A stretch of 64,000 nucleotides of DNA from Candidatus Shapirobacteria bacterium (GTDB lineage: Bacteria > Patescibacteriota > Microgenomatia > UBA12405). The translations under genes and the position numbers were made by a program. This document shows, piece after piece, positions 1,539 through 21,904 of the stretch. The notes beneath the pieces are model-generated. The model worked only from the letters and a program-made list of their open reading frames with translations, did no database searches and was not told the DNA's origin. Each line of letters starts with the position of its first letter. Positions within the stretch are counted from its first letter, which is position 1. The stretch lies in the NCBI GenBank assembly GCA_018062705.1, contig JAGORQ010000003.1:2270-66269 (forward strand). The letters run 5' to 3'.

Positions 1539-4093
1539 AATGAATTACTGCATTTAAAACACCCTTCTTCGGCATACAATGGACTACCACAATCCGGGCA
1601 CGAGCTAAATTTACTTTCACTTTCTGCCTGTTTAGATCTAATTTCCGATAATATATTTTTCTGTACGGGCGCAATGCTTTGCGCCCCTACTTCAATTGGA
1701 TTTTTCTCCTCTTCAAACATTGCCAATTGTTCACCTCTCGATACTTCGAGTAATGACTTACCCACTGCATCAAACATGCTCAAAATTGCATTTGGCCCCG
1801 TCCCCACTCTCTGGCCACAAGATATTCCTACCAATTCGTCAGCCAACTCATCCAAACTGGCTCCATATTTTAATGCCAGTGATGCCAATCGACCCGTCAC
1901 TTCAGCCGAGCCGGCCATATAACCACCCGACTTCCCTAGAGTTACAAAAATTTCTACCGGACCATCCCCTTCCTCAAAAAATACTGAGGTATACACCTTC
2001 CCTACATCAGAAGTTTTTCTAAATCTCACCCCCCTGGCCGCCTCCGGCGTCTTCTTCTTGCTAGCCAACTTCAAACTTACTTCTAGTTTCTCGTTTCTCG
2101 TTTCTAGTTTCTTTTCTGTGACCGGTGCAATCACTTCTTTCTCTCTACTTCCACTTCGATAAATTGTGATCCCCTTGGTCCCTAGAGAATAGGCCAATCT
2201 ATAGGCAGTTCGCACATCTTCGACTGTCGCTTCTTTGGGAAAATTAATTGTTTTACTGACTGCATTATCTGTGAATTCCTGAAATGCGGCCTGAAGCTTT
2301 ACATGCCATTCCGGCGTAATCTCCAAAGCCGTCCTAAATATATTTTTTATATCATCTGGCAACTCCTCCATTCCTGACAGCTTACCTCCATTTTTGACAA
2401 TCTTGTCCAAGAGTTGATCATTATATAAATCACGTCTTTTCAATTCTTCTACAAACACTGGGTTCATCATATATAGAGTTTTGCCTTCCACCGTATTCTT
2501 TTGAAAACCCAAACTAAATGCCGGTTCCACTCCACTACTACAGTCGGCAATCATGCTGATTGTTCCGGTTGGAGCAATCGTTGTTAATGCCATATTGCGT
2601 GGTCGGTAATCAGTTCCGAGAAACACCGACACCTCCCAAGCGGGAAACACCCCCCTAGTTTTGGCCAATTCAACAGTTTCTTTTCTTGACTCTTCATTAA
2701 TAAATTTCATCAATTTTCTCGCCCATACAATTCCTTCTTCTGAATCGTAACGAACTCCCAATTTAAACAACATATCTGCAAATCCCATCACTCCCAACCC
2801 AATCCTACGGGTTTTCGACACCATATCCCGGATTTTTTGCACCGGAAACTCGTTTACCTCCACCACATTATCCAAAAAATGAATTGCCTCGTGTACCACC
2901 CTCGCCAACTCATCCCAGTCAATATCTCTTCGTATTATTCCAGTTTCTAGTTTCTCGTTTCTAGTTTCTGTTTCCAAATCTTTCTCTATAATAAATTTGG
3001 AAACATTTATCGACCCCAAATTACACGCATCATACGGCAACAATGGTTGCTCCCCACACGGATTGGTAGCTTCAATTCTACCCAACTTTGGCACTGGGTT
3101 ACTGTTAGCATCATTCATTCTGTCAATAAATACCAACCCCGGATCACCATATTGCCAAGCCAGTCGAGTTACCAAATTAAATACTTTGTAGGCGTTCAAC
3201 TTCATCACTACCTTACAATTTCGTGGATTTATCAATTCATAACCTTCACCCTCATTTGTGGCCTTAGCCCAATCATAAAGTTTTACAATCCATTGTTCAA
3301 TTGTCCTCAATCGCAAATCAACATCTCGCAATCCTTCTGCTTCCCTAATTTTTTCCACTACTTCTTCGGGAAAGGACTCGTCGCTCACAAATCTTTTATC
3401 TGGCTCAATTTGATCCATAAACTTGTTAGTTATCGCCAGAGAAATATTGAAGTTAGTCAACGAATATTCATCCAGTTTTACTACCGCAAATCTCAATACA
3501 TCTGGATGATCTACCGACAACATGCCCATATTTGCCCCCCTACGTACTCCACCTTGCTTGATCTGACTAGTTACATCATTGTAGGCCTGCATAAAACTTA
3601 CCGGCCCAACAGTCGTCCCACCCGATGTGGCAATATAGTCTCCACTTGGTCTCAATCGAGTGAACGAAAACCCAGTGCCTCCACCACTTTTATGGATTTT
3701 GGCCATATCCGTCATTGTTTCCAGTATCGATTCCATCGAATCATCAATTGGCAACACAAAACAAGCTGATAATTGTTGATGTTTTTTGCCAGCATTCACC
3801 AAACAAGGTGTGTTTGGAAAAAATTTTTGCTCGGCCATCATTTCATAAAACACTTTAGCCTGCTGCTCTATATTTGATTGAAGATTGAAGTTTGTAGATT
3901 GAAAATTCTCATCGCCCTTGGCTATGTTACTCGCCACTCTCCAAAAAATATCCTTGGCAGTTTCCACCACCTTCCCCGACTCGTCCTTCATTGCATATCT
4001 TGTTTCGGCAATATACTTTGCGTTTGGCGACAGCATCGGTTCTTTTAATTCAGCACCGTTAATCTGATTATTTCTTTGGTTTAAATCGTTCAT
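1514..4093 (-). CDS. nrdJ: ribonucleotide reductase, class II (adenosylcobalamin-dependent)
   Basis: Motifs LSACFVLPIDDS, NPCGEQPL..YDACNLGSIN, C-terminal CxxC zinc finger; downstream of nrdR. Confidence 0.9.
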   Translation of the reverse strand: MNDLNQRNNQINGAELKEPMLSPNAKYIAETRYAMKDESGKVVETAKDIFWRVASNIAKGDENFQSTNFNLQSNIEQQAKVFYEMMAEQKFFPNTPCLVNAGKKHQQLSACFVLPIDDSMESILETMTDMAKIHKSGGGTGFSFTRLRPSGDYIATSGGTTVGPVSFMQAYNDVTSQIKQGGVRRGANMGMLSVDHPDVLRFAVVKLDEYSLTNFNISLAITNKFMDQIEPDKRFVSDESFPEEVVEKIREAEGLRDVDLRLRTIEQWIVKLYDWAKATNEGEGYELINPRNCKVVMKLNAYKVFNLVTRLAWQYGDPGLVFIDRMNDANSNPVPKLGRIEATNPCGEQPLLPYDACNLGSINVSKFIIEKDLETETRNEKLETGIIRRDIDWDELARVVHEAIHFLDNVVEVNEFPVQKIRDMVSKTRRIGLGVMGFADMLFKLGVRYDSEEGIVWARKLMKFINEESRKETVELAKTRGVFPAWEVSVFLGTDYRPRNMALTTIAPTGTISMIADCSSGVEPAFSLGFQKNTVEGKTLYMMNPVFVEELKRRDLYNDQLLDKIVKNGGKLSGMEELPDDIKNIFRTALEITPEWHVKLQAAFQEFTDNAVSKTINFPKEATVEDVRTAYRLAYSLGTKGITIYRSGSREKEVIAPVTEKKLETRNEKLEVSLKLASKKKTPEAARGVRFRKTSDVGKVYTSVFFEEGDGPVEIFVTLGKSGGYMAGSAEVTGRLASLALKYGASLDELADELVGISCGQRVGTGPNAILSMFDAVGKSLLEVSRGEQLAMFEEEKNPIEVGAQSIAPVQKNILSEIRSKQAESESKFSSCPDCGSPLYAEEGCFKCSNSFCGYSKCS
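1663..1690. repeat. 28-bp palindromic element (family A) in-frame in nrdJ
   Basis: See 20530-20557. Confidence 0.8.
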
Positions 4094-4149
4094 ATAAAGC
4101 CCCGCGCAGCGGCATCTTTTTTAATTAGTAATTAGTAATTTGTAATTAG

Positions 4150-4593
4150 TCATTTTTTAAACTCCTCTACAATCTTCTTAAACTCCCCCACCTCTTTAAT
4201 ATCCAAATAAATCGTCGCAAACCGGATATACGCCACCGGGTCAGTTTTTTTCAAAATATCCATCACCAACTTCCCAATTTCTTTAGAAGGGATTTCCACA
4301 CTCTTCCAGTTAAGAAGCTTCATTTCTATTTCATCAATCAATTTTTGTCGTTCATCTGCCGTCACCCGCCACAAAGCCCTCTCAAAACATCTCTCTAGTT
4401 TTTCTCGTTGATAATCTTCAACTGATCCATCCTTTTTGACCACCTTCAATTCAATACTGCCCACCTTTTCATAGGTTGTGAACCGCTTGGCACACTTGAC
4501 ACACTCCCTTCGACGCCTAGTGGCCTTGCCTTCCATCGCATCCCGCGACTCAAGGACGTTGCTTTCATCAAAACCGCAATAAGGACATAACAT
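4150..4593 (-). CDS. nrdR: transcriptional repressor NrdR
   Basis: MLCPYCG...Zn-ribbon plus ATP-cone sequence; upstream of nrdJ. Confidence 0.9.
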   Translation of the reverse strand: MLCPYCGFDESNVLESRDAMEGKATRRRRECVKCAKRFTTYEKVGSIELKVVKKDGSVEDYQREKLERCFERALWRVTADERQKLIDEIEMKLLNWKSVEIPSKEIGKLVMDILKKTDPVAYIRFATIYLDIKEVGEFKKIVEEFKK

Positions 4594-4643
4594 TTTTGTC
4601 TGTCATTCCCGCGAAAGCGGGAATCTATATAAAAATTAACAAT

Positions 4644-4659
4644 CCACTATCCATAGTGG
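4644..4659. promoter_or_regulatory. NrdR-box-like palindrome CCACTATCCATAGTGG upstream of nrdR-nrdJ
   Basis: 16-bp palindrome resembling NrdR box consensus (acaCwAtATaTwGtgt), about 50 bp upstream of nrdR start. Confidence 0.5.
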
Positions 4660-4764
4660 ATGACTTCTATCTTATCCGCCACCCCAAGTGCCCGTCAACT
4701 ATTAACTAGTGTAACAATGTATCCCCAATCCCCCTCAAACACCCTGAACAATTTATTTATACAC

Positions 4765-4968
4765 TTACTCAAACTCCCTTTGCGCTTTCTCCAGCTCAAT
4801 CAACATTTTCTCATTAACTCCTTTTAATAAATTCTTTAAATACTCAAAATCAAGCACACCAAACTTCACCTTGCCTCTCACACTAATCAACCTATACTTT
4901 TCTTTTTTAACCTTACCTAAGGTAACTGCCAAATTACTTCTCAATTTTGTACTACTAACAATATTCAT
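4765..4968 (-). CDS. Phd/YefM-family antitoxin-like protein (apparently orphan)
   Basis: 67 aa, pattern S.T.LRSNL...V.....LISVRGK..FGVL.FEYL typical of Phd/YefM. Confidence 0.45.
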   Translation of the reverse strand: MNIVSSTKLRSNLAVTLGKVKKEKYRLISVRGKVKFGVLDFEYLKNLLKGVNEKMLIELEKAQREFE

Positions 4969-5035
4969 ATGTACATAACAAATGTACAGTTAATAATGGT
5001 CAACCCGTCCCGTAACAAGTCACAAGCAACACCAA

Positions 5036-5734
5036 CTATTCACTAATTTTATGTGCATCCCAATCAAAATCTCCCGTCTGCATTTTCACTTCAAAAGCAT
5101 TCTCTGGTTGTTTGAACCCTTTTAAATGTATTTCTACAACTGAAGGACTGTGCCTCTTCCTTGTACCATATACATTAGAAGTATCTACTCCTTGAGCAAC
5201 TTTTGCAGTAACAAAACTACACCCTCTAAAATTTATTTCATCAGCCGTACCACCAGCAAATCCTTTCGACAGAATTACCTGACCAGGATCACCACTAGCA
5301 TGTATCACCATCGGATTGTTAGTGAACGTATCTGCCACCATCACCCAATCTTCACCATTTCCCAACTTTGTCATTACTTCATCATTCAAAGGTGTTTGAT
5401 ACAAAACTCTAGCTGCCTCCTGATCGGTGTTACCCATATCACCACCACCTTTTCTCGTCATACCCATCTCTTTACCAACAAATAATGCTAAATCATATAC
5501 CGCTCTCGCATATCCACTAGTATCTCCAGCTTCTTGAGCATTGGTTATTAAACCATTTAATCTTTCATACTCTCCTACAATCGACACTTCTCCTATCCTG
5601 ATACCAGGCGAATCGGGCAAAGATATACCAGTTCTAATAGTTTTATCACCAAATCTGGCAATAAATTTCTGCTTATCAAAACCCTGAGCTGATGTATTAA
5701 CTGCGTCGTGCAAATCTCGAAGATTGTCAAACAT
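5036..5734 (-). CDS. hypothetical protein
   Basis: 232-aa ORF between nrdR and secE, no recognised motif. Confidence 0.45.
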   Translation of the reverse strand: MFDNLRDLHDAVNTSAQGFDKQKFIARFGDKTIRTGISLPDSPGIRIGEVSIVGEYERLNGLITNAQEAGDTSGYARAVYDLALFVGKEMGMTRKGGGDMGNTDQEAARVLYQTPLNDEVMTKLGNGEDWVMVADTFTNNPMVIHASGDPGQVILSKGFAGGTADEINFRGCSFVTAKVAQGVDTSNVYGTRKRHSPSVVEIHLKGFKQPENAFEVKMQTGDFDWDAHKISE

Positions 5735-5813
5735 TTATATTATTAACAATTATTACCCAAATTCTACCAAATTTATCGATTTATTAACAACGATATATAA
5801 GGTACAATACCTC

Positions 5814-6095
5814 ATGCGTCAAATCGTTAAGTTTCTCTCTGAAGTCAGAGCCGAATTTAAAAATATAACTTGGCCTTCTCGACAGTCTTTAATTCAGCTC
5901 ACATTTGTGGTAATATCAATCTCCATCATCATCTCCCTGATTTTAGGGGGTTTCGATTATATTTTTACTCAATCAATCGCCCTTTTGGGCCAAAATAAAC
6001 AAACCGTAGCACCAACTGTTATCAGCACTGCTACCCCCACCCCCGACAAATTTCCACCAATTCTTCCTACAACCAAGCCAACAATTAAAAAATAA
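5814..6095 (+). CDS. secE: preprotein translocase subunit SecE (track ORF starts 5724; ATG at 5814 more plausible)
   Basis: KFLSEVRAEFKNITWPSR + TM helix; immediately upstream of nusG; C-terminal Pro/Thr-rich extension. Confidence 0.7.
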   Translation: MRQIVKFLSEVRAEFKNITWPSRQSLIQLTFVVISISIIISLILGGFDYIFTQSIALLGQNKQTVAPTVISTATPTPDKFPPILPTTKPTIKK

Positions 6096-6096
6096 T

Positions 6097-6693
6097 ATGC
6101 CAAATAACTCTACTAAGACCAAAAACAAAGACTACTTATTCAAACTCTCTCCTCTCGAACCTTCCTTTGATGCTGCCTGGTATGTCCTCAATACCTATTC
6201 TGGTCACGAATACAAAGTTATTGATGCTCTAAAAATCCGTATCAAAACCATGGGTTTGGAAGATCAAATTTTTCAAGCCATTGTCCCAATTCAATCCAAA
6301 ATGGTTATCCGCCGTGGTCAAAAAGTCAAAACCCAAGAAAAAACTTTCCCCGGTTATGTCTTAATCCAAATGGCTCTCAATGATGATTCCTGGATCACTG
6401 TTCGCACCACCCAAGGTGTCACTGGCTTTATCGGTATTGAAAATCAGCCCACTCCCATTTCCCAGGCTGAAGTTGATGTCATTATCAAAGGTGTCGTTGA
6501 AGACAAGCCCAAATTCCAAACTCCGTTTGCTCAGGGCGATGTCGTCAAAATCACCAATGGTCCCTTTACCGACTACATTGGTACTATTGATACTATCGAT
6601 CAAGAACGTGGCCGTCTTCGTGTTCTCGTCTCTTTCTTCGAGCGCGAAACCCCAGTTGAACTTGATTTCTTGCAAGTAACCAAAGAGCTTTAA
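6097..6693 (+). CDS. nusG: transcription termination/antitermination factor NusG
   Basis: NGN and KOW regions (VVKITNGPFTDYIGTI), conserved synteny secE-nusG-rplK. Confidence 0.9.
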   Translation: MPNNSTKTKNKDYLFKLSPLEPSFDAAWYVLNTYSGHEYKVIDALKIRIKTMGLEDQIFQAIVPIQSKMVIRRGQKVKTQEKTFPGYVLIQMALNDDSWITVRTTQGVTGFIGIENQPTPISQAEVDVIIKGVVEDKPKFQTPFAQGDVVKITNGPFTDYIGTIDTIDQERGRLRVLVSFFERETPVELDFLQVTKEL

Positions 6694-6696
6694 TCT

Positions 6697-7053
6697 ATGC
6701 CCGGATTTAATCGAAAAAAAGGTGAGATTATCAATATATTCGCCACCTCTGTCGCTCAAAAAATTACTGAAGGCAATGCTTTTAGACGAACCGATCTTGG
6801 GGAAATATGGACAAGTACCTTCGCACCTCTTTGTGGTGAGGTCGGCAACGGCACACCACTAGCAATTTTGGAAACTAAAGTTCGAACTAAGTATTACGAG
6901 TTAAATAAACATAATCTAGCAACAAGGCGCACTCACGACGGATTTGTCACTTACGACCCAACAATAAGTGCCAGTCAAGTAGCTTTCGAACAGATACAGC
7001 ATAACTCCTCGGCAGAAAAAACCCAAGCTCGTCTAAAAAACAAACAAGGTTGA
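6697..7053 (+). CDS. hypothetical protein inserted between nusG and rplK
   Basis: 118-aa ORF starting 3 nt after nusG stop; no known motif; atypical position. Confidence 0.3.
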   Translation: MPGFNRKKGEIINIFATSVAQKITEGNAFRRTDLGEIWTSTFAPLCGEVGNGTPLAILETKVRTKYYELNKHNLATRRTHDGFVTYDPTISASQVAFEQIQHNSSAEKTQARLKNKQG

Positions 7054-7157
7054 TTCGATTCCTAGACTTTTACCGCAATTTATTAGATAATACCAACATT
7101 CCTCAAGCTCTGTCGTGAACCAGAGGCTTCACTTTAGGACTATAAATTTTTCAAACT

Positions 7158-7583
7158 ATGGCAAAAAAAATAAAAACAGTTGTTAAGCTCGCTCTCCAGG
7201 CCGGCATGGCCAATCCCGCTCCTCCAGTTGGTACTGCTCTCGGTCCTCAAGGTATCAAAATCATGGATTTCTGCAACGAATTCAACGAACGCACCAAAGA
7301 CATGAAAGGTTCTTTGATTCCTGCTTTAATCACTATTTACGAGGATAGATCTTTTGATTTCATCATCAAAAAACCACCAGTTTCTGACATGATCAAAAAA
7401 ATTACCGGTATCACCAAAGGTTCTGGTACCACCGGTCGTGAGAAAATCGGCATAATTACCCAAGACCAAATCACCAAGGTCGCTACCGACAAAATGTCCG
7501 ATTTAAATACCCAAGACATTGAGGCCGCCAAGCGCATGGTCACCGGCACCGCCCGCTCCATGGGTTTTGAGATTGTTGGTTAA
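7158..7583 (+). CDS. rplK: 50S ribosomal protein L11
   Basis: MAKKI...GMANPAPPVGTALGPQGI... canonical L11. Confidence 0.95.
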   Translation: MAKKIKTVVKLALQAGMANPAPPVGTALGPQGIKIMDFCNEFNERTKDMKGSLIPALITIYEDRSFDFIIKKPPVSDMIKKITGITKGSGTTGREKIGIITQDQITKVATDKMSDLNTQDIEAAKRMVTGTARSMGFEIVG

Positions 7584-7600
7584 TCAATTTAAAAATCCTT

Positions 7601-7891
7601 ATGGAAACAACCAAGGGATTTAGAGAAAACTACAAACACCTCTTTGAGGGCTCCCAAACAAGTTTACCTGAACGATCGAATAATTTAGAGTGTCATTTTA
7701 CCCCTGGAGGTGTCACTACTTGCTGTGAAAATGCCGGTCATGAATACCTCGTAGAGCCAATGCCTCAAGGCAGGATGGGGCTAACTAAATTACCAACAAT
7801 CATCGGCTTTAAAGGGACATGTGTTCCTGGTTGCAGTTCCTGTCGAGTAACCGGCAATGAAAATATGCAAGATAAGTTTTTTAGAGATTAA
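7601..7891 (+). CDS. small Cys-containing hypothetical protein
   Basis: 96-aa ORF with CC, CxxGC, CSSC motifs between rplK and rplA. Confidence 0.3.
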   Translation: METTKGFRENYKHLFEGSQTSLPERSNNLECHFTPGGVTTCCENAGHEYLVEPMPQGRMGLTKLPTIIGFKGTCVPGCSSCRVTGNENMQDKFFRD

Positions 7892-7899
7892 CTTTCCAT

Positions 7900-8154
7900 A
7901 TGCCAAAAGGCTTGCCAGAACTAAATCCAGCTACTGAAACAAGATATTCACACCTTACAGTTGTCGAGGTTGACGAAGTCACCGATGGGACAGCTAAGTT
8001 TAATAGCTACGGTTTGGGTTGTGACCTGTTGGGTGAAGGTTGTCGAAGGCTAAGTCATGTAGTTCCTATAACAACCGCCGACGGTTTAATCGTACCAATT
8101 GCCCGTTTTTCGTCATGCAAAAAATGTATTGAATACGGAATAAACAGGAAATAA
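7900..8154 (+). CDS. small Cys-containing hypothetical protein
   Basis: 84-aa ORF with GCDLLGEGC and CKKC motifs, follows previous ORF by 8 nt. Confidence 0.3.
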   Translation: MPKGLPELNPATETRYSHLTVVEVDEVTDGTAKFNSYGLGCDLLGEGCRRLSHVVPITTADGLIVPIARFSSCKKCIEYGINRK

Positions 8155-8201
8155 CCAACGGTTATCTGTTATAATTACCCACTTATAATTTTCCAAATCA
8201 T

Positions 8202-8963
8202 ATGAGCAAAACCTCACAAGAAAACAAAAAGAAAAAGCTTGTTGTGGAAGATCAAGTAATTGATCACAAGGCTTCAGAATCCGTCGAAGAAACTGGAGTA
8301 AATCCCGAAATCGTTAATGAGGAGACCGTTTCCGCCGAAGGCGGATCCGCCTCTGGCGGAAAAAGAACTGCCAAAGTTCGCGGCAAAAAATATCAAACCG
8401 CCAAGAAAAAGGTTGACGTAGCCAAATTTTACCCCATCAAAGACGCTGCCAAATTGGTCAAAGAAACTTCTTTCTCCAAATTTGAAGGCAAAATCGAAGC
8501 TCACATCACTGTGACCGAAGAGGGTAACTTAGGTGAAATTGTCTTCCCCCACCTCGAAACAGCCAGCAAAAAAATCGTCATCTTAAACGATGCTATTTTG
8601 GCTGAAATCAAAGACGGTAAAGTCGATTTTGATATTCTTATCGCCACTCCCGCCACCATGCCCAAGCTTTTACCTTTTGCCAAGGTTCTTGGTCCCAAAG
8701 GTTTAATGCCCAATCCCAAGAGTGGCACCTTAACCGACAAACCCGAAGAAGCTGTCAAAAAGCTGTCAGTAGCCAAAACCATGATCAAAACCGAGAAAAA
8801 AGCTCCGGTTGTTCATATCATTGTTGGAAAAGTTTCCCAACCGGTCGAAGAGCTCAGTGCCAATGTGGCTGAACTCATCAAGGTTGTCAAACCAATTCGT
8901 ATCAAAAAATTGGCTCTTTGTGCCACCATGGGCCCATCAGTCAAAGTCGAGGTCCTAAAATAA
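8202..8963 (+). CDS. rplA: 50S ribosomal protein L1 (with about 65-aa Lys/Glu-rich N-terminal extension)
   Basis: Conserved L1 core from about residue 70 (FEGKIEAHITV...KVLGPKGLMPNPKSGT). Confidence 0.9.
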   Translation: MSKTSQENKKKKLVVEDQVIDHKASESVEETGVNPEIVNEETVSAEGGSASGGKRTAKVRGKKYQTAKKKVDVAKFYPIKDAAKLVKETSFSKFEGKIEAHITVTEEGNLGEIVFPHLETASKKIVILNDAILAEIKDGKVDFDILIATPATMPKLLPFAKVLGPKGLMPNPKSGTLTDKPEEAVKKLSVAKTMIKTEKKAPVVHIIVGKVSQPVEELSANVAELIKVVKPIRIKKLALCATMGPSVKVEVLK

Positions 8964-8966
8964 CAA

Positions 8967-8990
8967 GTCATTCCTGCGAAGGCAGGAATC
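8967..8990. repeat. GC hairpin element GTCATTCCTGCGAAGGCAGGAATC (family B copy)
   Basis: Near-identical copies at 4602-4625 and 45557-45580, variant at 1056-1075. Confidence 0.7.
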
Positions 8991-9006
8991 TATTTAAATT
9001 TTCAAT

Positions 9007-9034
9007 CCCCCTCCCCCGAGGGGGATTTTTATTT
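9007..9034 (+). terminator. rho-independent terminator after rplA
   Basis: CCCCCTC-cccc-GAGGGGG hairpin followed by T-run. Confidence 0.7.
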
Positions 9035-9037
9035 CCC

Positions 9038-9086
9038 TTGACACCCCAACATAGTTATGTTATCATATACATATTCGTATATGATA
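9038..9086 (+). promoter_or_regulatory. sigma70-like promoter (TTGACA-N17-TATCAT) overlapping 10-bp palindrome TATCATATAC-N6-GTATATGATA (putative AbiEi operator)
   Basis: Exact -35, 17-nt spacer, near-consensus -10; perfect inverted repeat spans -10 and start region. Confidence 0.5.
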
Positions 9087-10348: not shown

Positions 10349-10364
10349 AAATAATGTTGGCCTA

Positions 10365-11777: not shown

Positions 11778-11824
11778 GATTTATTTGCCATTTTTTTGTG
11801 CTATCATAACCTCTCTTTTCCAAC

Positions 11825-13192: not shown

Positions 13193-13636
13193 CCCGTCTT
13201 CGATCAACTTCGGCACCAAAAACTTTTTGGTACTCTCCGACACTACCAAATCTTTATTCTCAAAATCTGCTCGCAAAAACCACCTCATTTCCCCAATTTC
13301 ACTCGCCAGTTTTATTTTTTCAATATCAATAGTTATCAAATAACAGTCAATTTGTTGCATCCCACCATCATTTTGCAACGGCGCTTGATATTCAATATAT
13401 TTACTAAAATTTAACAACTCAATCGACAACTCTTCCATCAACTCCCTCTTTAATGTCTCCAAATCAGACTCACCATCCTCCACTCTGCCTCCTGGTGTAA
13501 AATAAAAATCTTTATAAAATCCACTATTGCCCCGCACCAATAAAATCTTTTTGTCTTGAATAATCACCGCCGACACCCTTTTTCGCTTTATTTCCATTAT
13601 CCATATTATAATATAGCTAGTGAAAAAAACTCTCAC
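13184..13636 (-). CDS. NUDIX hydrolase
   Basis: Nudix box GGRVEDGESDLETLKRELMEELSI. Confidence 0.75.
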   Translation of the reverse strand: MRVFFTSYIIIWIMEIKRKRVSAVIIQDKKILLVRGNSGFYKDFYFTPGGRVEDGESDLETLKRELMEELSIELLNFSKYIEYQAPLQNDGGMQQIDCYLITIDIEKIKLASEIGEMRWFLRADFENKDLVVSESTKKFLVPKLIEDGLI

Positions 13637-14867: not shown

Positions 14868-14969
14868 TTTTTTATCAAAAATCACCAAATTATCGGATAA
14901 TATGCTACAATAATTGCCTTTGGTGTTTGAAAACAAGACCAACACCTGGAATAATGATTACTGTCATAG

Positions 14970-15641
14970 ATGTTCAAAAATCTAAAAAAACAATTGTTTC
15001 CTAAAAACGAAAGTTTAGAATCAATCTTTCTTGAATACCCAAACGTCTTCAATTACTCTCCTACTGCCAGCATTCAGTATGCTACTAAAGCTTTCACTTA
15101 CATCAATCTAAATCTAGAAATTATTGCCTCCGACCCAAAAAAAAGACAAATCGTCGTTGATAAATTACTTTCTGAAACTAATAATTATTCCGATATTGAT
15201 TATATCTGCGGTATTGAAAGCGGCGGGTCTTACTTTGCCTCAGCAATAGCCGACAGACATCAAAAAAAACTAATTATGCTTCGTCGAAGAGAGAAAATTG
15301 AAAACAACAATCTCTCTCGCTTAGTTGGCCAGTTTCCACCTGCAGGAAGTCGCATATGCCTAATTGATGATGTACTGTCAACCGGCTTAACCTTATTCCA
15401 AGCCAAAAAATTTTTTACAGACATTGGTTGCTCGGTAATTGAAGCCAAAATTATATATAGTTACGGCTTCGAAAAAGCTATTAGTCGTGAGTTGGATCTT
15501 AAAATCAGTGTTATCTCAAATTATAACAACCTTATTAAGATTGCACTTGAAAAAAAGATACTCACCACAAAAGATACCCTAAAACTAAACCGATACATTA
15601 GCTCTTTCAAACAATACTTGACTCGAAAAAAGATTATTTAG
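14970..15641 (+). CDS. phosphoribosyltransferase family protein (type I PRTase)
   Basis: PRPP-binding motif ICLIDDVLSTGLT. Confidence 0.55.
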   Translation: MFKNLKKQLFPKNESLESIFLEYPNVFNYSPTASIQYATKAFTYINLNLEIIASDPKKRQIVVDKLLSETNNYSDIDYICGIESGGSYFASAIADRHQKKLIMLRRREKIENNNLSRLVGQFPPAGSRICLIDDVLSTGLTLFQAKKFFTDIGCSVIEAKIIYSYGFEKAISRELDLKISVISNYNNLIKIALEKKILTTKDTLKLNRYISSFKQYLTRKKII

Positions 15642-15643
15642 AA

Positions 15644-16219
15644 CTAGGTATAATCTTTATCTTTCTTCATTTCCTTTTCAATCAGATCCCGTAAAAATAC
15701 GGAGCGTGGGATCATTCTTTTCTTTGCCACCCAGTCCAAATAAGACAAAATTCTTGGGCTGACAAAAAAGTTGAAACGTACATCAATTATCTTTCTTGCT
15801 TGTTCCAATGCCTCCGTCAACTTTGGCATCAAATTTGATTCGTCATATTCAATCCAAATGACCTTATTATTCTGTATTCCAGTAAAAAGTATCGGCTCAT
15901 GGTCTGCTGTATGTAAAACAATTACCGGCTTTCCCTTTTCGAGAGCAACGGTAATTTCATGACCTATGTGTAAAGTTGAGGGGAAAGATGCTTCAAAAAC
16001 ACAGATATCAGCCTTTTCAATATTTTTCAACATCGTTCTGTATAGACCCAATCTATCATTCTTTGATAAAGAGCTGTATGCACCTGATGGTGATTTAAGT
16101 CTACCGTTGTCAGTAACTTTATATTCCGACTTAACCAACACTTTCATTATATTTTCATAGTTAACCCCAAACTTTTCTCGATAGGCTCTAGGTGCTGAAA
16201 AATATAGTTTCATAGCCAA
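15644..16219 (-). CDS. hypothetical protein, possible ribbon-helix-helix C-terminus
   Basis: C-terminal RSVFLRDLIEKEM resembles RHH antitoxin-like tails. Confidence 0.35.
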   Translation of the reverse strand: MAMKLYFSAPRAYREKFGVNYENIMKVLVKSEYKVTDNGRLKSPSGAYSSLSKNDRLGLYRTMLKNIEKADICVFEASFPSTLHIGHEITVALEKGKPVIVLHTADHEPILFTGIQNNKVIWIEYDESNLMPKLTEALEQARKIIDVRFNFFVSPRILSYLDWVAKKRMIPRSVFLRDLIEKEMKKDKDYT

Positions 16220-17245
16220 TTATCTCAAATTATCAGCAAAAAATCCAATATCCCTCTCCACCGCCTCTTTCCACCCCTTCGTCAAATTATGATCACTTCC
16301 TTCATACACATCCAGTGTGGCATCTTTATCCAGACTTTTTAATTTAGTTACCACTTTTTCCTGCCAACTAAGCTTGACCTGATCATCAATCGTCCCCTGC
16401 TGAATTAATATTGGCGCATTTATCCATTGATAATAATTTTCAAACGCATATCGCCGGGCATCATAATGCTTCTCAAAATCCTCCATTATTTGTTTTATTG
16501 GGCTATCAACATCAATGGTTGACAACACACTGTCCGGAAACGGTTGGGTCATTGGCGCCCACAATACAGCAGGATACTTTTCTCCAGTAATTTCCAACAC
16601 CGACAACACAATCTGCCCACCATTACTATGTGCCCAAATTCCAATTTTAGTTTTATCTACCCAGGGCAATTGCTTAACTGCATTAATTAAATCAAGTACT
16701 TCCGCCACTTTGTGAAATCTAGCCTCAAGTGGATCAATGGATTCTCCATCCGAATTTCCATATCCCAAAAAATCCAAACTAACCGTGGCATAACCTGCCT
16801 CAGCCAATTTGTCCGCTACTCGCCAACTCCCCGACCCCGGGTAATACCCCGCCTTTTCCGCATACCCCCGAACCATTATTATTACTGGCGTCAAGCTGTT
16901 TTTTTCAGGAAAATAATTGATCATTCCCGACACTTTTTTACCATCACTCTCAAAGCTAATTTCTCGTGTATCAAATTGACGGTCATACTTCAACTTTTGT
17001 TGCTTTCTCCGATCTTCTACAGGCTTTAAGTTTCCCAATATTTTAAAATTTCCTGCAGATTGCAGTTTGTAGATTGAAGATTGCCGTAGACTATCAAAAT
17101 CGTACCTCAGCAAACTTTGCTCAATCTTTTCTTTTTCTTCCCCCTTTGGATCCATCCACCCTCTCGGCCAAAAATAATACCCCACCGCCACCAATATGGT
17201 TGCCACTCCAATTCCTATTAACCATTTGCCTAAACTTTTTCTCAC
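16220..17245 (-). CDS. alpha/beta hydrolase (membrane-anchored)
   Basis: N-terminal TM helix, GIWAHSNGG nucleophile-elbow-like motif; in-frame heptamer insert at 17056-17085. Confidence 0.55.
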   Translation of the reverse strand: MRKSLGKWLIGIGVATILVAVGYYFWPRGWMDPKGEEKEKIEQSLLRYDFDSLRQSSIYKLQSAGNFKILGNLKPVEDRRKQQKLKYDRQFDTREISFESDGKKVSGMINYFPEKNSLTPVIIMVRGYAEKAGYYPGSGSWRVADKLAEAGYATVSLDFLGYGNSDGESIDPLEARFHKVAEVLDLINAVKQLPWVDKTKIGIWAHSNGGQIVLSVLEITGEKYPAVLWAPMTQPFPDSVLSTIDVDSPIKQIMEDFEKHYDARRYAFENYYQWINAPILIQQGTIDDQVKLSWQEKVVTKLKSLDKDATLDVYEGSDHNLTKGWKEAVERDIGFFADNLR

Positions 17246-17263
17246 TACTCATTTTACCCCAAA

Positions 17264-17626
17264 CTAATCTACCAGTTCTAATCCAGGCACTCGCTCAAAA
17301 TGTTTCCGATTTAATGTCCACAGTTTTCCTCTTCCTTCAACACAACTGCTAGCAATTAGTAGATCTTTTTCATCAATTGGACTTTGTCTTAATAGTATTT
17401 TTAATTTTGTATATATTCTAGCTGTTTGTAATCCTATATCTACCAAATTTACTTTATTTATCTTCAACCATATTTCCCAATCATCAAGGCTTTTTCCAAT
17501 TCGCAAAAACCCATACCCAACTTCAGCATAAACAGTTGCATTTATCCAATACTCATCTTTTTGATTCAACAAAATTCTCTCTTTTATTTTTTCTATAATT
17601 ACACAAGAGTCTAAAAATATTTTCAT
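17264..17626 (-). CDS. PIN-domain toxin (VapC-like)
   Basis: MKIFLDSCVII N-terminus, about 120 aa, 4-bp overlap with upstream Phd-like gene. Confidence 0.65.
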   Translation of the reverse strand: MKIFLDSCVIIEKIKERILLNQKDEYWINATVYAEVGYGFLRIGKSLDDWEIWLKINKVNLVDIGLQTARIYTKLKILLRQSPIDEKDLLIASSCVEGRGKLWTLNRKHFERVPGLELVD

Positions 17627-17853
17627 CTATCAAAATCCATTTTAAACGATTCTCTAAATTCTTTCATCCCTGCTTCGATTCCATCAATTTCTTCATCGGT
17701 CAAATTAAATTCATAGTCATTAAACACTGGTGAAATAATTACAGCCGGTTTTTTGCCCCGATTAACAGTCACCTTAATTCTTTTACTAATCACATCATCC
17801 ATTAGTTTTCCAAAGTTGTTTTTGGCATACGTCGCCGTTACTGTTGTCATCAT
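17623..17853 (-). CDS. Phd/YefM-family antitoxin
   Basis: TATYAKNNFGKLMDDV...VNRGKKPAVIIS pattern. Confidence 0.7.
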   Translation of the reverse strand: MMTTVTATYAKNNFGKLMDDVISKRIKVTVNRGKKPAVIISPVFNDYEFNLTDEEIDGIEAGMKEFRESFKMDFDR

Positions 17854-17883
17854 TAGCTATTTTAGCTAATTTAGCTAAAGCTG

Positions 17884-18159
17884 TCAAACAATTTTTGATT
17901 CTTTATCCATCCTCTCACTCAAATATATCTTCATCAGCGATTGGTAAGGTACATCTTTTTTATTGGCAGTTTGCTTAATTCTGGCCAACAAACTCACTGG
18001 CAACCTTAAAGAAATTGAGACAGTTGACGGTTTTAGGTTAGGGAAAATAGCTTTCTCTGCCTTTGACCAATCAACATAATCAGTCGAATCATGAGTCGCC
18101 CAAAAGTCTCTTTCCTCGTCTTCATTTTTAAATATTGGTATTTTCTTAAACTTTTTCAT
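17884..18159 (-). CDS. BrnA-family antitoxin
   Basis: FKNEDEERDFWATHDSTDYVDWSKA...ISLRLP...VPYQSLMKIYL signature. Confidence 0.75.
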   Translation of the reverse strand: MKKFKKIPIFKNEDEERDFWATHDSTDYVDWSKAEKAIFPNLKPSTVSISLRLPVSLLARIKQTANKKDVPYQSLMKIYLSERMDKESKIV

Positions 18160-18439
18160 AATTATTTTTCTCCTTTTTATTCATATCTCTAATAGAAATA
18201 ATTCTAATTTTTTCATCTCTTTTGGTAAAAGAGACAAAAAGCAACCGACTTTGATTTGTTTTTCCCAGACCTTTGTACCTTTGTTCTCTTTCTGAATGAA
18301 TAATGTCTAAAGCTATTATCAGAGGTTCATTACTAAAAACCTCCTCAGCCTCCTGATTAGTTACATTATGTCTAATAAAATTTTTATCAATATTTCCTTC
18401 ATCCCACTCAAATAATATAGGTTCAGGAATTATTTTCAT
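18146..18439 (-). CDS. BrnT-family toxin (DUF497)
   Basis: FEWDEGN...HNVTNQEAEEVF...IRIISIRD signature; overlaps BrnA start. Confidence 0.75.
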   Translation of the reverse strand: MKIIPEPILFEWDEGNIDKNFIRHNVTNQEAEEVFSNEPLIIALDIIHSEREQRYKGLGKTNQSRLLFVSFTKRDEKIRIISIRDMNKKEKNNYEKV

Positions 18440-18504
18440 TCTAAATTAGTATATTACTCCAATATACATTTGTCAATAAATCAAACTATTCCACTTTTTT
18501 CAAA

Positions 18505-18650
18505 ACTCTGTTATAATCACACCTGTCCTACCGAAGACAGCCGGTTTTCTGAAAAGATATAAATCCCGCCGAGGCCAAAACTAGATTCTTTTATCTACGC
18601 CTCGAATTTCGAGGCTATTTCGTTTTTAAATTTTAAATTTTTAAATTTAA
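18505..18650 (+). promoter_or_regulatory. putative rplJ leader with strong hairpin GCCTCGAATTTCGAGGC
   Basis: Structured region directly upstream of rplJ; perfect 8-bp stem at about 18600-18617. Confidence 0.3.
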
Positions 18651-18655
18651 TAAAA

Positions 18656-19174
18656 ATGCCATCTATCGCTAAAACAAAAAGTATCAACAAGGTTGATGAA
18701 GTTGTCGTCAAATTAACCGACTCCAAATCAGCTGCCCTAATCCAATATCAAGGTCTAACCGCTGCTGACGTCGCTTCCCTCCGTGCCAATGTCAAAAAAA
18801 CTGGTGGTGAGCTTGAAGTTGTCAAAAATACTCTTATTCACCGCGCCCTTCTCAAGCTCGGTATTTCTCTTCCCCAAACCCTAACTGGTCCCACCGCTAT
18901 TGCCTACAGCAATACCGACGAAATTGCTCCACTCAAGGAAATTGACTCTGTCAACAAAGCCAAAGAAAAAACCTTTTTCAAATACGGTATTTACGACAAA
19001 AAACTTTTGTCTGCTGACGAACTCAAAGCTTTCCTATCGCTTCCTTCTAAATCTACCCTCATTGCCCAACTTATTGGCGGTTTGAAGAATCCTCTTCAAA
19101 GAATGGTCTATGCCATGCGCTACAACCAAACCAAGCTGGTCATGACCCTTAAAGCCATATCGGAAAAAATTTAA
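18656..19174 (+). CDS. rplJ: 50S ribosomal protein L10
   Basis: Canonical L10 sequence, followed by rplL. Confidence 0.9.
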   Translation: MPSIAKTKSINKVDEVVVKLTDSKSAALIQYQGLTAADVASLRANVKKTGGELEVVKNTLIHRALLKLGISLPQTLTGPTAIAYSNTDEIAPLKEIDSVNKAKEKTFFKYGIYDKKLLSADELKAFLSLPSKSTLIAQLIGGLKNPLQRMVYAMRYNQTKLVMTLKAISEKI

Positions 19175-19333
19175 CCATTTAACCATTTTTCATTTATCAA
19201 AAAACCAAAATATCAAATCAATGATAAATGGTTCTCAAATATCCTTATATACACTGAGAAATTAAATTTCCTCTTTGAATAAGTTTATTCTAATAGTCTT
19301 TTATAAATTATTAATTAATTTTTTTATAAAAAT

Positions 19334-19711
19334 ATGGATAAAAAATTAGAAAAAATCCTAACCGACATTTCTGAACTTTCAGTTCTCGAATTGTCCGAAC
19401 TCGTTAAAGCTCTCGAAGAAAAATTCGATGTCAAAGCTGTCGCTATGGCTGCTGCTCCAGCCGCTGGTGCCGCCGCTGCCGCTCCTGTTGCCGAAGAGAA
19501 GACCGAATTTGATGTTGTCATCAGCAATGCTGGCACCAACAAAATCGCCGTCATCAAAGTCGTCCGCGAATTCAAACCAGAACTTGGTTTGAAAGAAGCT
19601 AAAGACATGGTTGATGCTGCTCCAGCCAACCTCGGTACCATGAAAAAAGACGCCGCCAACGATGCTAAGACCAAACTCGAAGCTGCAGGCGCCACCGTCG
19701 AACTCAAATAA
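19334..19711 (+). CDS. rplL: 50S ribosomal protein L7/L12
   Basis: Ala-rich hinge, C-terminal KEAKDMVD...AGATVELK. Confidence 0.95.
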
Positions 19712-19732
19712 GAGAAACATTTCTTTTAAACT

Positions 19733-19762
19733 AAAACCCCCGCCTCCGCGGGGGATTTTTTT
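19733..19762 (+). terminator. rho-independent terminator after rplL
   Basis: CCCCCGC-ctcc-GCGGGGG hairpin followed by T7. Confidence 0.75.
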
Positions 19763-19774
19763 ACAACACTCCAA

Positions 19775-19942
19775 TTACTCTCTTGCTTTATATTCAGCCT
19801 CTGTCCACAATTCAACCGACGAATAACACTTTGCATCACCATCTTTCGTGGTGACATAAACATCATTACCGTCAATACGACTAATAACACACCTTTTGAG
19901 CGTTGCCTTGTGATAAACGATATCACCTAAATTTAGATTCAT
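19775..19942 (-). CDS. small hypothetical protein (55 aa), below track size cutoff
   Basis: ATG..TAA minus-strand ORF MNLNLGDIVYHKATLKRC...; low-complexity-free. Confidence 0.25.
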   Translation of the reverse strand: MNLNLGDIVYHKATLKRCVISRIDGNDVYVTTKDGDAKCYSSVELWTEAEYKARE

Positions 19943-20296
19943 ACTACTAGTTAACTAATAACACATCCTCTTTACAACTCAAACTCATTACTTAATAATA
20001 AGGTTGCACATGAGAAACGGGAGGATGAATAATCTTTCCGTTTTTTATTTTCCTCTTCTTTGTCTCAAAGCAGAACCTGCGACAGATTTTTCTTTTTTAC
20101 GAGAAAGATCTTTCTTTAGGAGCTTTGAAGCAATAGAGCCGATTTTTTTTGATGTTTTGGCCATATTTTTTCTTAAATAAATAACATTAGCGCTCAATAT
20201 AATTGATTGCTAATGTAATTTTATTTCAAGCATAAATATCTTCAAGAGAGAAAAATGTAACAAATTAATTACTTGAGCATATTCTGCGGAGATTAG

Positions 20297-21904
20297 TTAT
20301 CCGCGACACTTTTTTACAAACTCCACAAATATCGGATGTGGAGCCAACGGTCGGCTCTTATACTCCGGATGAAACTGTGTCCCCACAAAAAAGGGATGAT
20401 TTTTTAATTCAATTGCCTCCACCAATTTTCCATCTGGACTGGTGCCACTAATCACCATCCCCGCTTTTTCCAACTGCTCTCTAAATTCATTGTTCACCTC
20501 ATATCGATGACGATGCCTTTCTTGCACCTGTACGGGCGCAATGCATTGCGCCCCTACATCCATATATATATATTCCAAAATACTGCCTTTTTTAACTTTA
20601 CATGGCCAACCCCCCAATCTAATTGTCCCACCATATTGATGCGCTTCCAAATATTTTTTTTGATCCGGCATCACATGCACTACCGGATATTTCGTCTTCG
20701 GATCCACCTCTTCCGAATTAGCATTTTTCAATCCCAGCACGTTTCGACTAAATTCAATCACTGCCATTTGCATTCCAAAACAAAGACCCAAATAAGGAAT
20801 CTTGTTCTCCCTAGCAATCCGCACCGTTTCAATAATTCCCTCCGTCCCCCGGCTCCCCCATCCTTGTGGCACCACAATGCCACTATATTTTTTCAACATT
20901 TCTTCATTAACTTCTTCAGAGCAAATCGAATCAATCTGTAAATTTACACTATTCGCAATTCCCCCATGCTTCAACGCCTCCATTACCGACACATACACAT
21001 CAGCATGCTTCCCTCCCCCATGATTCACATATTTTCCCACCAACGCTATTCGTACGGGCGCAATGCTTTGCGCCCCTACAATTAATTTTTTCCACTCTCC
21101 TAAATTAGCCTTTCTATTTTTTATTTTAAAATGCTTAAATATTTTTTTTAATATTTTTTGTTTTTCCAAAACTAACGGTACTTCATAAATTGATTTACAG
21201 TCTGCATCCTCAAAAATTGCATCATTTTCCAAAAAACATCTTTTGGCCAAAGTCTCCCTCCTTGGTTCATCCAGTTCAATTTCGCTTCGGGTTATCAAAA
21301 TATCCGGAATAATACCCGTTGACCTCAATTCGGCAATCGCCTGCTGAGTTGGTTTAGTTTTTAGCTCACCCACATTTTTCAAAAACGGCACGTAAGTCAC
21401 CATCACATACATCGCCTTGCGCTCCCGCCCCACCTCTCGTGCCGCATACAAAAATGGCAAGTTTTCTATATCCCCAGTGCTTCCCCCAATCTCTACGACG
21501 ACAAAATCAAAACCACTTTCTAATTCATAAAATCTCCTCTTCACCTCATTTGGCACATCCGGAATCATTTCCACATCTCGTCCCTCATATTTAAACGCCC
21601 GCTCGTTATTAATAATCGTCTGATAAATTTTCCCAGAGGTAATATTATTGTCTTTGGAAAAATTTTGATTCAAAAATCTCTCGTAATTTCCCAAATCCTG
21701 GTCAATTTCCCCGCCATCTTCGGTCACAAAAGTTTCTCCGTGTTCCTGCGGTCGCATTGTCCCGGCATCCACATTCAAATACGGATCAATTTTTATCATG
21801 TTCACCTTAAAACCAGATGCTTTCAAAAGCATTCCTATAGATGATGCCACAATTCCTTTACCCAAACCACTCACTACCCCCCCAATTACAAAAATATATT
21901 TCAT
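20297..21904 (-). CDS. pyrG: CTP synthase
   Basis: N-terminal MKYIFVIGGVVSGLGKG and C-terminal GATase domain; contains two in-frame 28-bp palindromic inserts. Confidence 0.95.
   Translation of the reverse strand: MKYIFVIGGVVSGLGKGIVASSIGMLLKASGFKVNMIKIDPYLNVDAGTMRPQEHGETFVTEDGGEIDQDLGNYERFLNQNFSKDNNITSGKIYQTIINNERAFKYEGRDVEMIPDVPNEVKRRFYELESGFDFVVVEIGGSTGDIENLPFLYAAREVGRERKAMYVMVTYVPFLKNVGELKTKPTQQAIAELRSTGIIPDILITRSEIELDEPRRETLAKRCFLENDAIFEDADCKSIYEVPLVLEKQKILKKIFKHFKIKNRKANLGEWKKLIVGAQSIAPVRIALVGKYVNHGGGKHADVYVSVMEALKHGGIANSVNLQIDSICSEEVNEEMLKKYSGIVVPQGWGSRGTEGIIETVRIARENKIPYLGLCFGMQMAVIEFSRNVLGLKNANSEEVDPKTKYPVVHVMPDQKKYLEAHQYGGTIRLGGWPCKVKKGSILEYIYMDVGAQCIAPVQVQERHRHRYEVNNEFREQLEKAGMVISGTSPDGKLVEAIELKNHPFFVGTQFHPEYKSRPLAPHPIFVEFVKKCRG
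20530..20557. repeat. 28-bp palindromic element GTACGGGCGCAATGCATTGCGCCCCTAC (family A) in-frame in pyrG
   Basis: Copies at 1663-1690 (nrdJ) and 21052-21079 (pyrG); all encode VGAQ[S/C]IAPV. Confidence 0.8.
21052..21079. repeat. 28-bp palindromic element (family A) in-frame in pyrG
   Basis: See 20530-20557. Confidence 0.8.

Follow-up and report, generated by a model that had tools for sequence, protein, structure and literature searches.

The window analysed here, a stretch of 64,000 nucleotides (nt; 64 kb) from a contig of Candidatus Shapirobacteria, encodes the adenosylcobalamin-dependent ribonucleotide reductase NrdJ and the CTP synthase PyrG. A G+C-rich palindrome of 28 nt lies within both genes, once in nrdJ and at two sites in pyrG, and is translated in each case as part of the enzyme (Table 1). 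This element, its assignment to the repetitive extragenic palindromes (REPs) and the way in which it may have reached two unrelated essential genes are the subject of this report.

Exact forward-strand matches to GTACGGGCGCAATGCWTTGCGCCCCTAC were found at precisely the three positions given by the original prediction, compared with 0.00 expected from 100 dinucleotide-preserving shuffles of the window. A search with the 20-nt core allowing three mismatches gave no further copy in the window, and none of the window's other GC hairpins belongs to the family of the 28-mer. All three copies are on the minus strand, which is the sense strand of both host open reading frames (ORFs), where the sequence of the element is GTAGGGGCGCAA[A/T]GCATTGCGCCCGTAC and the codons GTA GGG GCG CAA [A/T]GC ATT GCG CCC GTA give the peptide VGAQ[S/C]IAPV. 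Copies 1 and 3 are identical, and copy 2, with one loop base different, is a perfect palindrome over its 20-nt core. The element has a G+C content of 64% against a window background of 36-46%. In its fold, a 4-nt loop closes an 8-bp G+C stem, with extra foot pairs; the free energy ranges from -19.9 to -21.4 kcal/mol for RNA and from -10.6 to -13.3 kcal/mol for DNA (z-scores -4.9 to -7.1; 0 of 200 shuffles folded equally well). The predicted in-frame peptide, G+C richness and hairpin were thus confirmed. The predicted 28-bp in-frame insert was correct as to frame but not as to length, the coding contribution being 27 nt, and the shared orientation relative to the gene, though seen in all copies, is inseparable from DNA-strand orientation since all copies lie on one G-rich strand.

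The copies are spaced 522 bp and 18.8 kb apart, with unrelated flanks, nothing repeated outside the 28 nt and reading frames that run unbroken across the element. A CRISPR repeat was ruled out, as there is no spacer array and the copies lie within ORFs; a miniature inverted-repeat transposable element (70-300 bp, with terminal inverted repeats and a target-site duplication) was ruled out by the length of 28 nt and the lack of a flanking direct repeat. A comparison of the flanks of five copies from the Candidate Phyla Radiation (CPR) revealed no insertion target or target-site duplication, no motif being common to them beyond the element's own GTA...GTA ends, and the nearest empty sites, at 83% amino-acid identity, are too diverged for fixing the insert boundaries.

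Alignment with orthologues indicated that the segment is foreign to PyrG. None of 119 other PyrG orthologues (68-83% identity) contains VGAQ[S/C]IAPV, and the pyrG copies appear on this basis to be specific to the window's lineage. Site 2 falls in the loop that leads into ERHRHRYEVN, a conserved strand of the glutaminase domain. The closest relatives have a gap at this point, and so does the Thermus thermophilus CTP synthetase structure 1VCO, in which it spans 8 residues. An AlphaFold model built with 40 orthologues in the alignment places site 2 in coil, with helix 441-448 on one side and strand 458-463 on the other, and gives pLDDT below 50 to residues 452-455. Site 1 falls in the linker joining the synthetase and glutaminase domains and is modelled as coil between helix 268-275 and strand 283-289. 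The two sites differ in what the element added: relative to orthologues, the gene is longer by about 8 codons at site 2 but by only about 2 at site 1. Because the length at site 1 is nearly unchanged (a difference of only about two residues from relatives), the element must have replaced something there; it looks like an earlier hairpin was exchanged rather than a clean insertion made. Unrelated inserts occupy the site-2 loop in other CPR lineages (P0025, P0070, P0103, P0116, P0053 and P0074; PNPSFDKEG, IARSKTTKQSLKDRHASLAMT and EIATPLSVARNDV among them), and these inserts look, from their sequences, like translations of yet other dispersed repeats, so that the loop would be a general insertion hotspot.

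The nrdJ copy has a different history. Its segment belongs to a hypervariable linker that joins the catalytic core to the zinc-finger tail, CPDCGSPLYA, at the C terminus, so that the proposed mapping onto solved structures, which succeeded for both PyrG segments, ends short of it, the solved core stopping at about residue 656. The segment was absent from 117 of 119 NrdJ orthologues, as the prediction implied, but two close relatives (P0122 and P0123, 80-81% identity) carry AVGAQSIAPVQ at the equivalent position, which fits an inherited insertion. Conservation in orthologues, the outcome that was to refute the original prediction, was not seen for the pyrG sites and was confined, for nrdJ, to these two relatives. 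At the DNA level, both relatives (loci L122 and L123) match the window copy at 28 of 28 bases, including the asymmetric AGCA centre and the GTAC end, despite third codon positions only 50-51% identical gene-wide and the same codon used for 52-53% of identical residues; nine identical codons in a row would be expected with a probability of about 0.53^9 = 0.003. With synonymous sites half randomised, such identity means either that insertion into nrdJ happened long ago or that it recurred at a single site, and that its bases are held constant. The nrdJ copy, common to the two relatives, would be older than the pyrG copies, and since the latter are lineage-specific yet identical or one base off, the family was active or re-templated after that split. 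In L122, nrdJ also contains a second 28-nt element, GTAGGGGTCGATGGCAATCGACCCGTAC, translated as VGVDGNRPV. The nrdJ cluster of the window comprises an NrdR-like ORF, the B12-dependent nrdJ and small ORFs, with an AdoCbl-II (B12) riboswitch downstream; in relatives, the neighbouring gene encodes a cob(I)alamin adenosyltransferase.

These alignments also bear on the reading that the segment is a functional or ancestral protein motif, or that an assembly error produced it. The same peptide does occur in two enzymes, and a near-perfect palindrome can trouble assemblers; however, it is missing from 119 of 119 PyrG and 117 of 119 NrdJ orthologues, lies in coil modelled with low confidence and leaves the frames intact. 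The element is moreover present in independent assemblies, namely the NCBI metagenome-assembled genome (MAG), a Logan contig of SRR11088367, two ENA contigs and one JGI contig. Orthologue alignments and independent assemblies together effectively refute this reading, to which we give almost no credence. The alignments support the view that the segment is an insertion, not an ancestral part of PyrG or NrdJ, and the 240 orthologues examined argue against its being ancestral in Microgenomates generally. The idea of a mobile-type palindrome in unrelated essential genes has stood up well: the element is absent from most orthologues, sits in indel-prone coil and is dispersed with unrelated flanks elsewhere.

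The extent of this dispersal became clear from a scan for the 20-nt core in one genome per species, which returned at least 120 loci with at least 129 copies. In flank alignments of the matches listed, the loci share the whole 28-mer GTAG-GGGCGCAA-WGCW-TTGCGCCC-CTAC, and the sequence outside it is unrelated. The hosts listed span at least ten phyla: Cyanobacteria (Nostoc, Tolypothrix, Cyanosarcina, Coleofasciculus and others); Chloroflexota, including Anaerolineae, Chloroflexia, Dehalococcoidia, SAR202 and Ktedonobacteria; Bacteroidales, Flavobacteriia, Chitinophagaceae and Rhodothermales on the Bacteroidota side; Ignavibacteria, Cloacimonadota, Abditibacteriota and Gemmatimonadota; Thermodesulfobacteriota, one deltaproteobacterium and one gammaproteobacterium; and, within CPR, Peregrinibacteria and another Shapirobacteria. 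Outside the window's lineage the 28-mer is mostly extragenic, with an open frame of at least 150 codons spanning 27% of the listed copies as opposed to 82% of random positions in the same loci. The exact CPR variant had 12 matches in metagenomes, 11 of them from one Cyanosarcina metagenome and one, L130, from a contig that is CPR-like. Nothing supports a viral vector as the means of spread between phyla, as the 20-nt core had 0 matches in the 2.9 million viral contigs of IMG/VR. Limited sequence space was also considered as the cause of cross-phylum identity; other perfect 28-nt palindromes with GTAGGGG...CCCCTAC ends and different apexes do co-occur in the same loci.

The core also appears to be reused as a module, judging from longer lineage-specific repeats with conserved flanks in which it is embedded. 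In Cloacimonadota (L037, L067, L118) it stands in GCTTTGTCAAAAGC-core-CTACA, in Anaerolineae F14_28 (L017, L048, L052, L089, L091, L111, L113) in the larger palindrome GCGTGCTNNGCCCT-core-AGGGCNNAGCACGC, and similar embedding is seen in Nostoc (L021, L073, L075, L077, L109, L112).

On these features we classify the 28-mer as a GTAG-tagged REP of the type cognate to the tyrosine transposases associated with REPs (RAYTs, or TnpA_REP) of HUH-Y1 subclass 2.4 (Bertels group 4), with a probability of roughly 0.8. The GTAG super-family of REPs is known from Proteobacteria, Cyanobacteria, Chloroflexi and the PVC group, has RAYT-containing REPtrons and occurs within genes in several species (Di Nocera 2013, PMC3733652). 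TnpA_REP subclass 2.4 is plentiful among Cyanobacteria and Bacteroidetes and scattered through the phyla; the stem of its REPs has three G-C pairs in a row at its base, and these REPs include "double foot" families with 5' GT[AG]G and 3' C[TC]AC and are unique in lying in frame inside tnpA_REP itself, in the part that separates HuH and Y (Quentin 2018, PMC6006769). A GTAG-tagged REP is a stem-loop of 20-40 bp, capable of folding in single-stranded DNA or RNA, with a GT[AG]G tetranucleotide, unpaired or at the foot, 0-2 nt 5' of the stem. In the window, GTAG immediately precedes GGGCGCAA on the minus strand in 3 of 3 copies, and GGG...CCC forms three G-C pairs at the stem base of every copy. 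PMC6006769 summarises the GTAG foot and GGG stem base as the very features used in the solved E. coli TnpA_REP-REP complex. The window copies run 5' GTAG...GTAC 3', with a second foot one base off CTAC, and so do not combine 5' GT[AG]G with 3' C[TC]AC on one strand, as a double foot does; they are filed as single-foot derivatives of a double-foot 28-mer. Of the 129 copies listed, both canonical feet are present in 37, a single one in 66 and none in 26. Whereas the family is predominantly extragenic, 3 of 3 window copies are intragenic, but intragenic GTAG REPs are an accepted minority state (PMC3733652), and membership of the 28-mer is therefore not excluded. The class is thus a described one, and the CPR host and the intragenic state are what is new; literature searches returned nothing relevant on the exact 28-mer sequence and no paper linking REPs with CPR bacteria.

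Table 1. The two host genes, the copies of the 28-mer, pyrG site-1 hairpins of related loci and other features of the window.
Feature	Position	Strand	Sequence or remark
nrdJ, adenosylcobalamin-dependent ribonucleotide reductase, 859 aa	1514..4093	-	100% match so named in Ca. Shapirobacteria
pyrG, CTP synthase, 535 aa	20297..21904	-	100% match, CTP synthase of Ca. Shapirobacteria
REP copy 1, nrdJ	1663..1690	-	GTAGGGGCGCAAAGCATTGCGCCCGTAC; NrdJ residues 802-810, VGAQSIAPV
REP copy 2, pyrG site 2	20530..20557	-	GTAGGGGCGCAATGCATTGCGCCCGTAC; PyrG residues 450-458, VGAQCIAPV
REP copy 3, pyrG site 1	21052..21079	-	identical to copy 1; PyrG residues 276-284, VGAQSIAPV
pyrG site 1 of L136			AAAGGTCGACATATCGGTCGACCCGTAC; KGRHIGRPV; foot AAAG
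pyrG site 1 of L140			AAGGGCGGAGACGGGAATCCGCCTGTAC; KGGDGNPPV
pyrG site 1 of L141			AAAGGGCAGAAATGGGATTCTGCCCATAC; KGRNGILPI
pyrG site 1 of L139			decayed GGACAACCACAAGGGTCACCCGTAC; GQPQGSPV
GAAACTAGAAACGAGA family	2945-2965, 2088-2108	-	both in nrdJ
GAAACTAGAAACGAGA family	36417-36437, 37207-37227	-	ORFs 36006-36497 and 36517-37413
GAAACTAGAAACGAGA family	33909-33929	-	end of short frame; partly palindromic (TTCTAGAAACCAGATTCTAGAA)
AdoCbl-II (B12) riboswitch	545-623	-	downstream of nrdJ cluster
NrdR-like ORF	4150-4593		nrdJ cluster
Adjacent G+C hairpins	8329-8362		CCGCC-GAA-GGCGG and CCGCC-TCT-GGCGG
Ribosomal protein L1-like ORF	8202-8963		
G+C-rich hairpin-dense non-coding stretch	42734-42874		contains GTAG-TCCCGC-AATC-GCGGGA-CGTAG
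tRNA-Pro	42900-42976		

The classification was supported by the company the element keeps. RAYT genes were sought by a motif screen followed by tblastn and a custom hidden Markov model (HMM). In 6 of the 120 loci listed, an HUH-Y1 gene surrounds the element or lies no more than 300 bp away, compared with about 0.1 such adjacencies estimated by chance over the 129 listed copies, given one to a few such genes per several-Mb genome. A Dokdonia locus (L099) has the element on both sides of its RAYT gene, the classical REPtron arrangement, and in an Anaerolinea (L092) and a Dehalococcoidia (L115) locus the element stands immediately downstream of the RAYT gene or at its 3' end. In the others it lies inside the gene, in frame in L034 and L066 and between gene halves in different frames in L057. 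The neighbouring proteins match NCBIfam NF047646 (REP-associated tyrosine transposase) with E values of 1e-13 to 1e-20, as well as Pfam Y1_Tnp. Subclass 2.4 is marked by an HuH motif NH[IFV]H, a WQ motif, a Y motif YIxNNP and, between HuH and Y, a variable insert bearing REPs; the neighbouring proteins agree with this at the level of motifs only: NHVH, WQR and YVVNNP in L092; NHLH, WQR and YIVNNP in L115; and DH[VI]H, WQR and YIENN or YIRGNP, with REP inserts, in L034 and L141.

The last of these belongs to a Shapirobacteria-type MAG (GCA_009885205.1, VFLE01000107.1, 2204-2935), in which a RAYT-like gene encoding 243 aa stands upstream of pyrG at a distance of 66 nt. The encoded protein matches the custom RAYT profile at E 4e-34 and NF047646 below the cut-off, and the gene is full of in-frame REPs of the same family as the REP at pyrG site 1 of that locus, from which they differ by a compensatory G-C to A-T pair. 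A search with the L141 protein gave 2551 homologues at E <= 1e-5, some of them named Ca. Shapirobacteria or Ca. Peregrinibacteria, and by these sequence matches the Shapirobacteria lineage appears to possess RAYT machinery. CPR homologues carry the same REP unit in varying copy number. If our classification is correct, subclass-2.4 RAYTs flanked by or containing GGGCGCAAWGCWTTGCGCCC would be expected.

The element might instead have spread without a RAYT, through recombination or gene conversion between copies, template switching at hairpins as DNA is replicated, or the action of some unknown enzyme, an idea put forward for the small dispersed repeats (SDRs) of cyanobacteria. RAYT proximity would then be incidental, with RAYT genes themselves being favoured landing sites: the element is inside the RAYT gene in 3 of the 6 associated loci, where it could be a target and not a substrate, the identical 28-mer stands beside RAYTs that are only about 30% identical, the 64-kb window has no RAYT, and pyrG site 1 looks like a replacement with almost no net length change. 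On the other hand, the foot and stem base are those of the E. coli complex (summarised in PMC6006769), the element borders the Dokdonia gene at either side as in a classical REPtron, and the REP families in the CPR RAYT gene of L141 recur in host genes of the same genome. We regard spread without a RAYT as quite improbable.

Copies in relatives showed how REPs are accommodated in coding sequence. The CPR-like metagenome contig L130 encodes VGAQCIAPV in an ORF for a WecG-type glycosyltransferase, and a single ORF of Shapirobacteria CG2_30_35_20 (L046) has three REP-derived segments, one of them, RSGVLSYART, in the other open frame; a decayed copy in L046 reads GGVQDIAPV. In CPR genes other than RAYTs the V-G-x5-P-V frame (GTA-GGG...CCC-GTA) is used in nearly all cases. 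A rule that the frame is always the same, with at least seven independent CPR events counted, was overturned by RSGVLSYART, and copies internal to RAYT genes use both frames; the frame bias is thus strong but not absolute, in a sample partly ascertained through the peptide. In the GTAG-first orientation one frame is closed by TAG, and a peptide rich in glycine, alanine and proline would probably be tolerated best. In 8 of 8 asymmetric CPR copies the G-rich strand is the one that carries GTAG, a pattern that, by analogy, would be compatible with strand-specific insertion on the lagging-strand template as in IS608. In the window itself, where both strands carry genes, GC skew lies between -0.13 and -0.45 in each 2-kb bin, and this uniform, very strong skew matches the chromosome-wide G/C strand disparity known from some Microgenomates (PMC7143001).

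Hairpins have also turned over at a single pyrG codon. At the codon occupied by copy 3 in the window, relatives carry different 28-nt hairpins with CCCGTAC ends (Table 1), making four apex families at pyrG site 1; a compensatory change of one pair, G-C to A-T, separates those of L140 and L141. At site 2, L138 has two units in tandem, VGAGFMPAQ-GRPQGSPV. The multiplicity of hairpins at one codon suggests cassette replacement at an existing foot. Together with the base-level conservation of the nrdJ copy and the roughly 30% identity of the RAYTs, this turnover gives a modest probability to hairpin exchange or to selection on the hairpin. CPR REP hairpins might accordingly be exchangeable in-frame cassettes at fixed intragenic sites, cut and swapped by RAYTs, with some copies selected at the nucleotide level. 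A CCC-GTAC foot would first be installed in a linker, after which hairpins of unrelated apex would replace each other at the same codon, each swap keeping the length of 28 nt and usually the V-G-x5-P-V frame. We consider this unlikely, though worth keeping in mind. If true, REPs would generate loop diversity in essential enzymes and would be a selected nucleic-acid feature, not tolerated junk.

Selection could also act alone, the element being an exapted one whose hairpin is kept for a role in DNA or mRNA, such as ribosome pausing, mRNA stability or processing, or protein binding. The nrdJ copy is preserved at 28 of 28 bases in two orthologues (chance about 0.003), in an A+T-rich mRNA a hairpin of -20 kcal/mol counts as very stable, two of the three sites coincide with domain boundaries, and the paired change between L140 and L141 maintains the stem at pyrG site 1. 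Yet most orthologues do without any hairpin at these sites, decayed copies exist (L139, L046 and the AAAG foot of L136), and the conservation is explained equally well by re-templating of a live substrate or by a recent second insertion at a hotspot. Exaptation is, in our judgement, improbable.

Under the RAYT-cognate classification, the following route can be drawn from known systems. The hairpin would form on single-stranded DNA, most readily on the lagging-strand template, by analogy with IS200/IS605 and E. coli TnpA_REP. A transposase would bind it, with the GTAG foot positioning cleavage and rejoining, and a hairpin cassette of about 24-28 nt would be copied or moved to a new site, or swapped into a site already bearing a foot. 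In a gene-dense Shapirobacteria genome of about 1 Mb, landing sites would be mostly coding. Surviving copies would be those that keep the frame, avoid the frame containing TAG and fall in tolerant coil, here an interdomain linker, a surface loop and a tail linker, where they would be translated as a bland V-G-x5-P-V loop. We infer the RAYT as mover, the single-strand and lagging-strand route, and the selective filter.

Several findings weigh against the classification or the route. First, the 3' end of the window copies is GTAC, not the canonical second foot CTAC or CCAC. Second, the NF047646 scores of the neighbouring proteins, 51-74 bits, are under the equivalog cut-off of 80, and the low identity (about 30%) between RAYTs beside the identical 28-mer in different phyla is a poor fit to simple co-evolution of REP and RAYT. 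Third, tblastn and the custom HMM detected no RAYT gene in the 64-kb window or, L141 excepted, in about 90 kb of other CPR contigs, and the window's own REP is an internal insert in 0 of the best 120 of the 2551 RAYT homologues, so that a cognate CPR enzyme for this sequence was not identified. Fourth, the strand bias is confounded with gene orientation and with the chromosome-wide G/C disparity of Microgenomates (PMC7143001). Fifth, a simple model leaves unexplained both the base-level conservation of the nrdJ copy and the presence of at least four unrelated hairpins at one pyrG codon across lineages with almost constant length. Lastly, formal evidence of REP mobility is absent (PMC6006769), and RAYT-driven movement of REPs is not known to have been demonstrated in vivo in any system.

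The window contains other repeats and hairpins. A second, A+T-rich family, GAAACTAGAAACGAGA[AT][AT]CT[AG]GAAAC, is in frame as ETRNE[KI]LET, with all copies on the minus strand; the first of its two nrdJ copies is an insertion relative to Thermotoga maritima NrdJ. The N-terminal extension of the ribosomal protein L1-like ORF includes SAEGGSASGGK, encoded by two adjacent G+C hairpins that may be another in-frame palindromic insert of a different family. Directly upstream of tRNA-Pro lies a G+C-rich, hairpin-dense non-coding stretch for which no Rfam family matched at E <= 1.

These results extend the REP/RAYT system to the Candidate Phyla Radiation, where minimal, gene-dense genomes force repeats into coding sequence and make them visible as short peptide inserts in core enzymes. 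G+C-rich nine-residue segments such as VGxxxxxPV, RGxxxCAPT and GRxALRPY in CPR or MAG proteins should be treated as REP-derived, not as motifs, misassemblies or lineage signatures, as they can mislead alignments, trees and structure predictions. They also constitute a compact natural experiment on the tolerance of essential enzymes to hairpin insertion. The variety of hairpins at one codon, the cross-phylum 28-mer and the conserved intragenic copy bear on whether and how RAYTs move REPs, and on REP selection.

Among known systems, the cyanobacterial SDRs of Elhai et al. 2008 are reportedly 21-27 nt long, mobile-looking and of hairpin potential, and occur in Nostocaceae, where the 28-mer is likewise abundant. 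With Rickettsia palindromic elements (RPEs), to which the original prediction compared it, the 28-mer shares its behaviour, as both are palindromes in frame in still-functional genes of a small genome and tolerated at surface positions, but not its membership: RPEs are confined to Rickettsia, whereas the 28-mer is GTAG-tagged, 28 nt long and found in many phyla. At about 100-150 bp, RPE-1 codes for 30-50 residues (Ogata et al. 2000, as cited in PMC3733652), and no transposase is known for the short, CGTC-tagged RPE-4 and RPE-6 (PMC3733652). REPINs and the RAYT groups 2 and 3 of Pseudomonas and enterobacteria have GTAG hairpins in common with it, together with a single-copy RAYT and long vertical persistence, but REPINs are inverted REP doublets of 70-100 bp, strictly extragenic and species-specific in sequence (Bertels & Rainey 2011, PMC3116915), unlike a single 28-nt palindrome found across phyla, which is possibly a collapsed REP doublet. 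Closest are the "canonical long" and "double-foot" REPs of the GTAG family and subclass 2.4, which have the same GT[AG]G foot and three G-C pairs, are dispersed and mostly extragenic, flank a RAYT and are scattered across phyla, and whose reverse-complement foot at the other end is present in most copies of the 28-mer outside the window. It differs from the published GTAG REPs in its CPR/Patescibacteria host, sampled by neither PMC3733652 nor PMC6006769, in having no cognate CPR RAYT found for the exact sequence, and in window copies that are all intragenic and end in a GTAC second foot.

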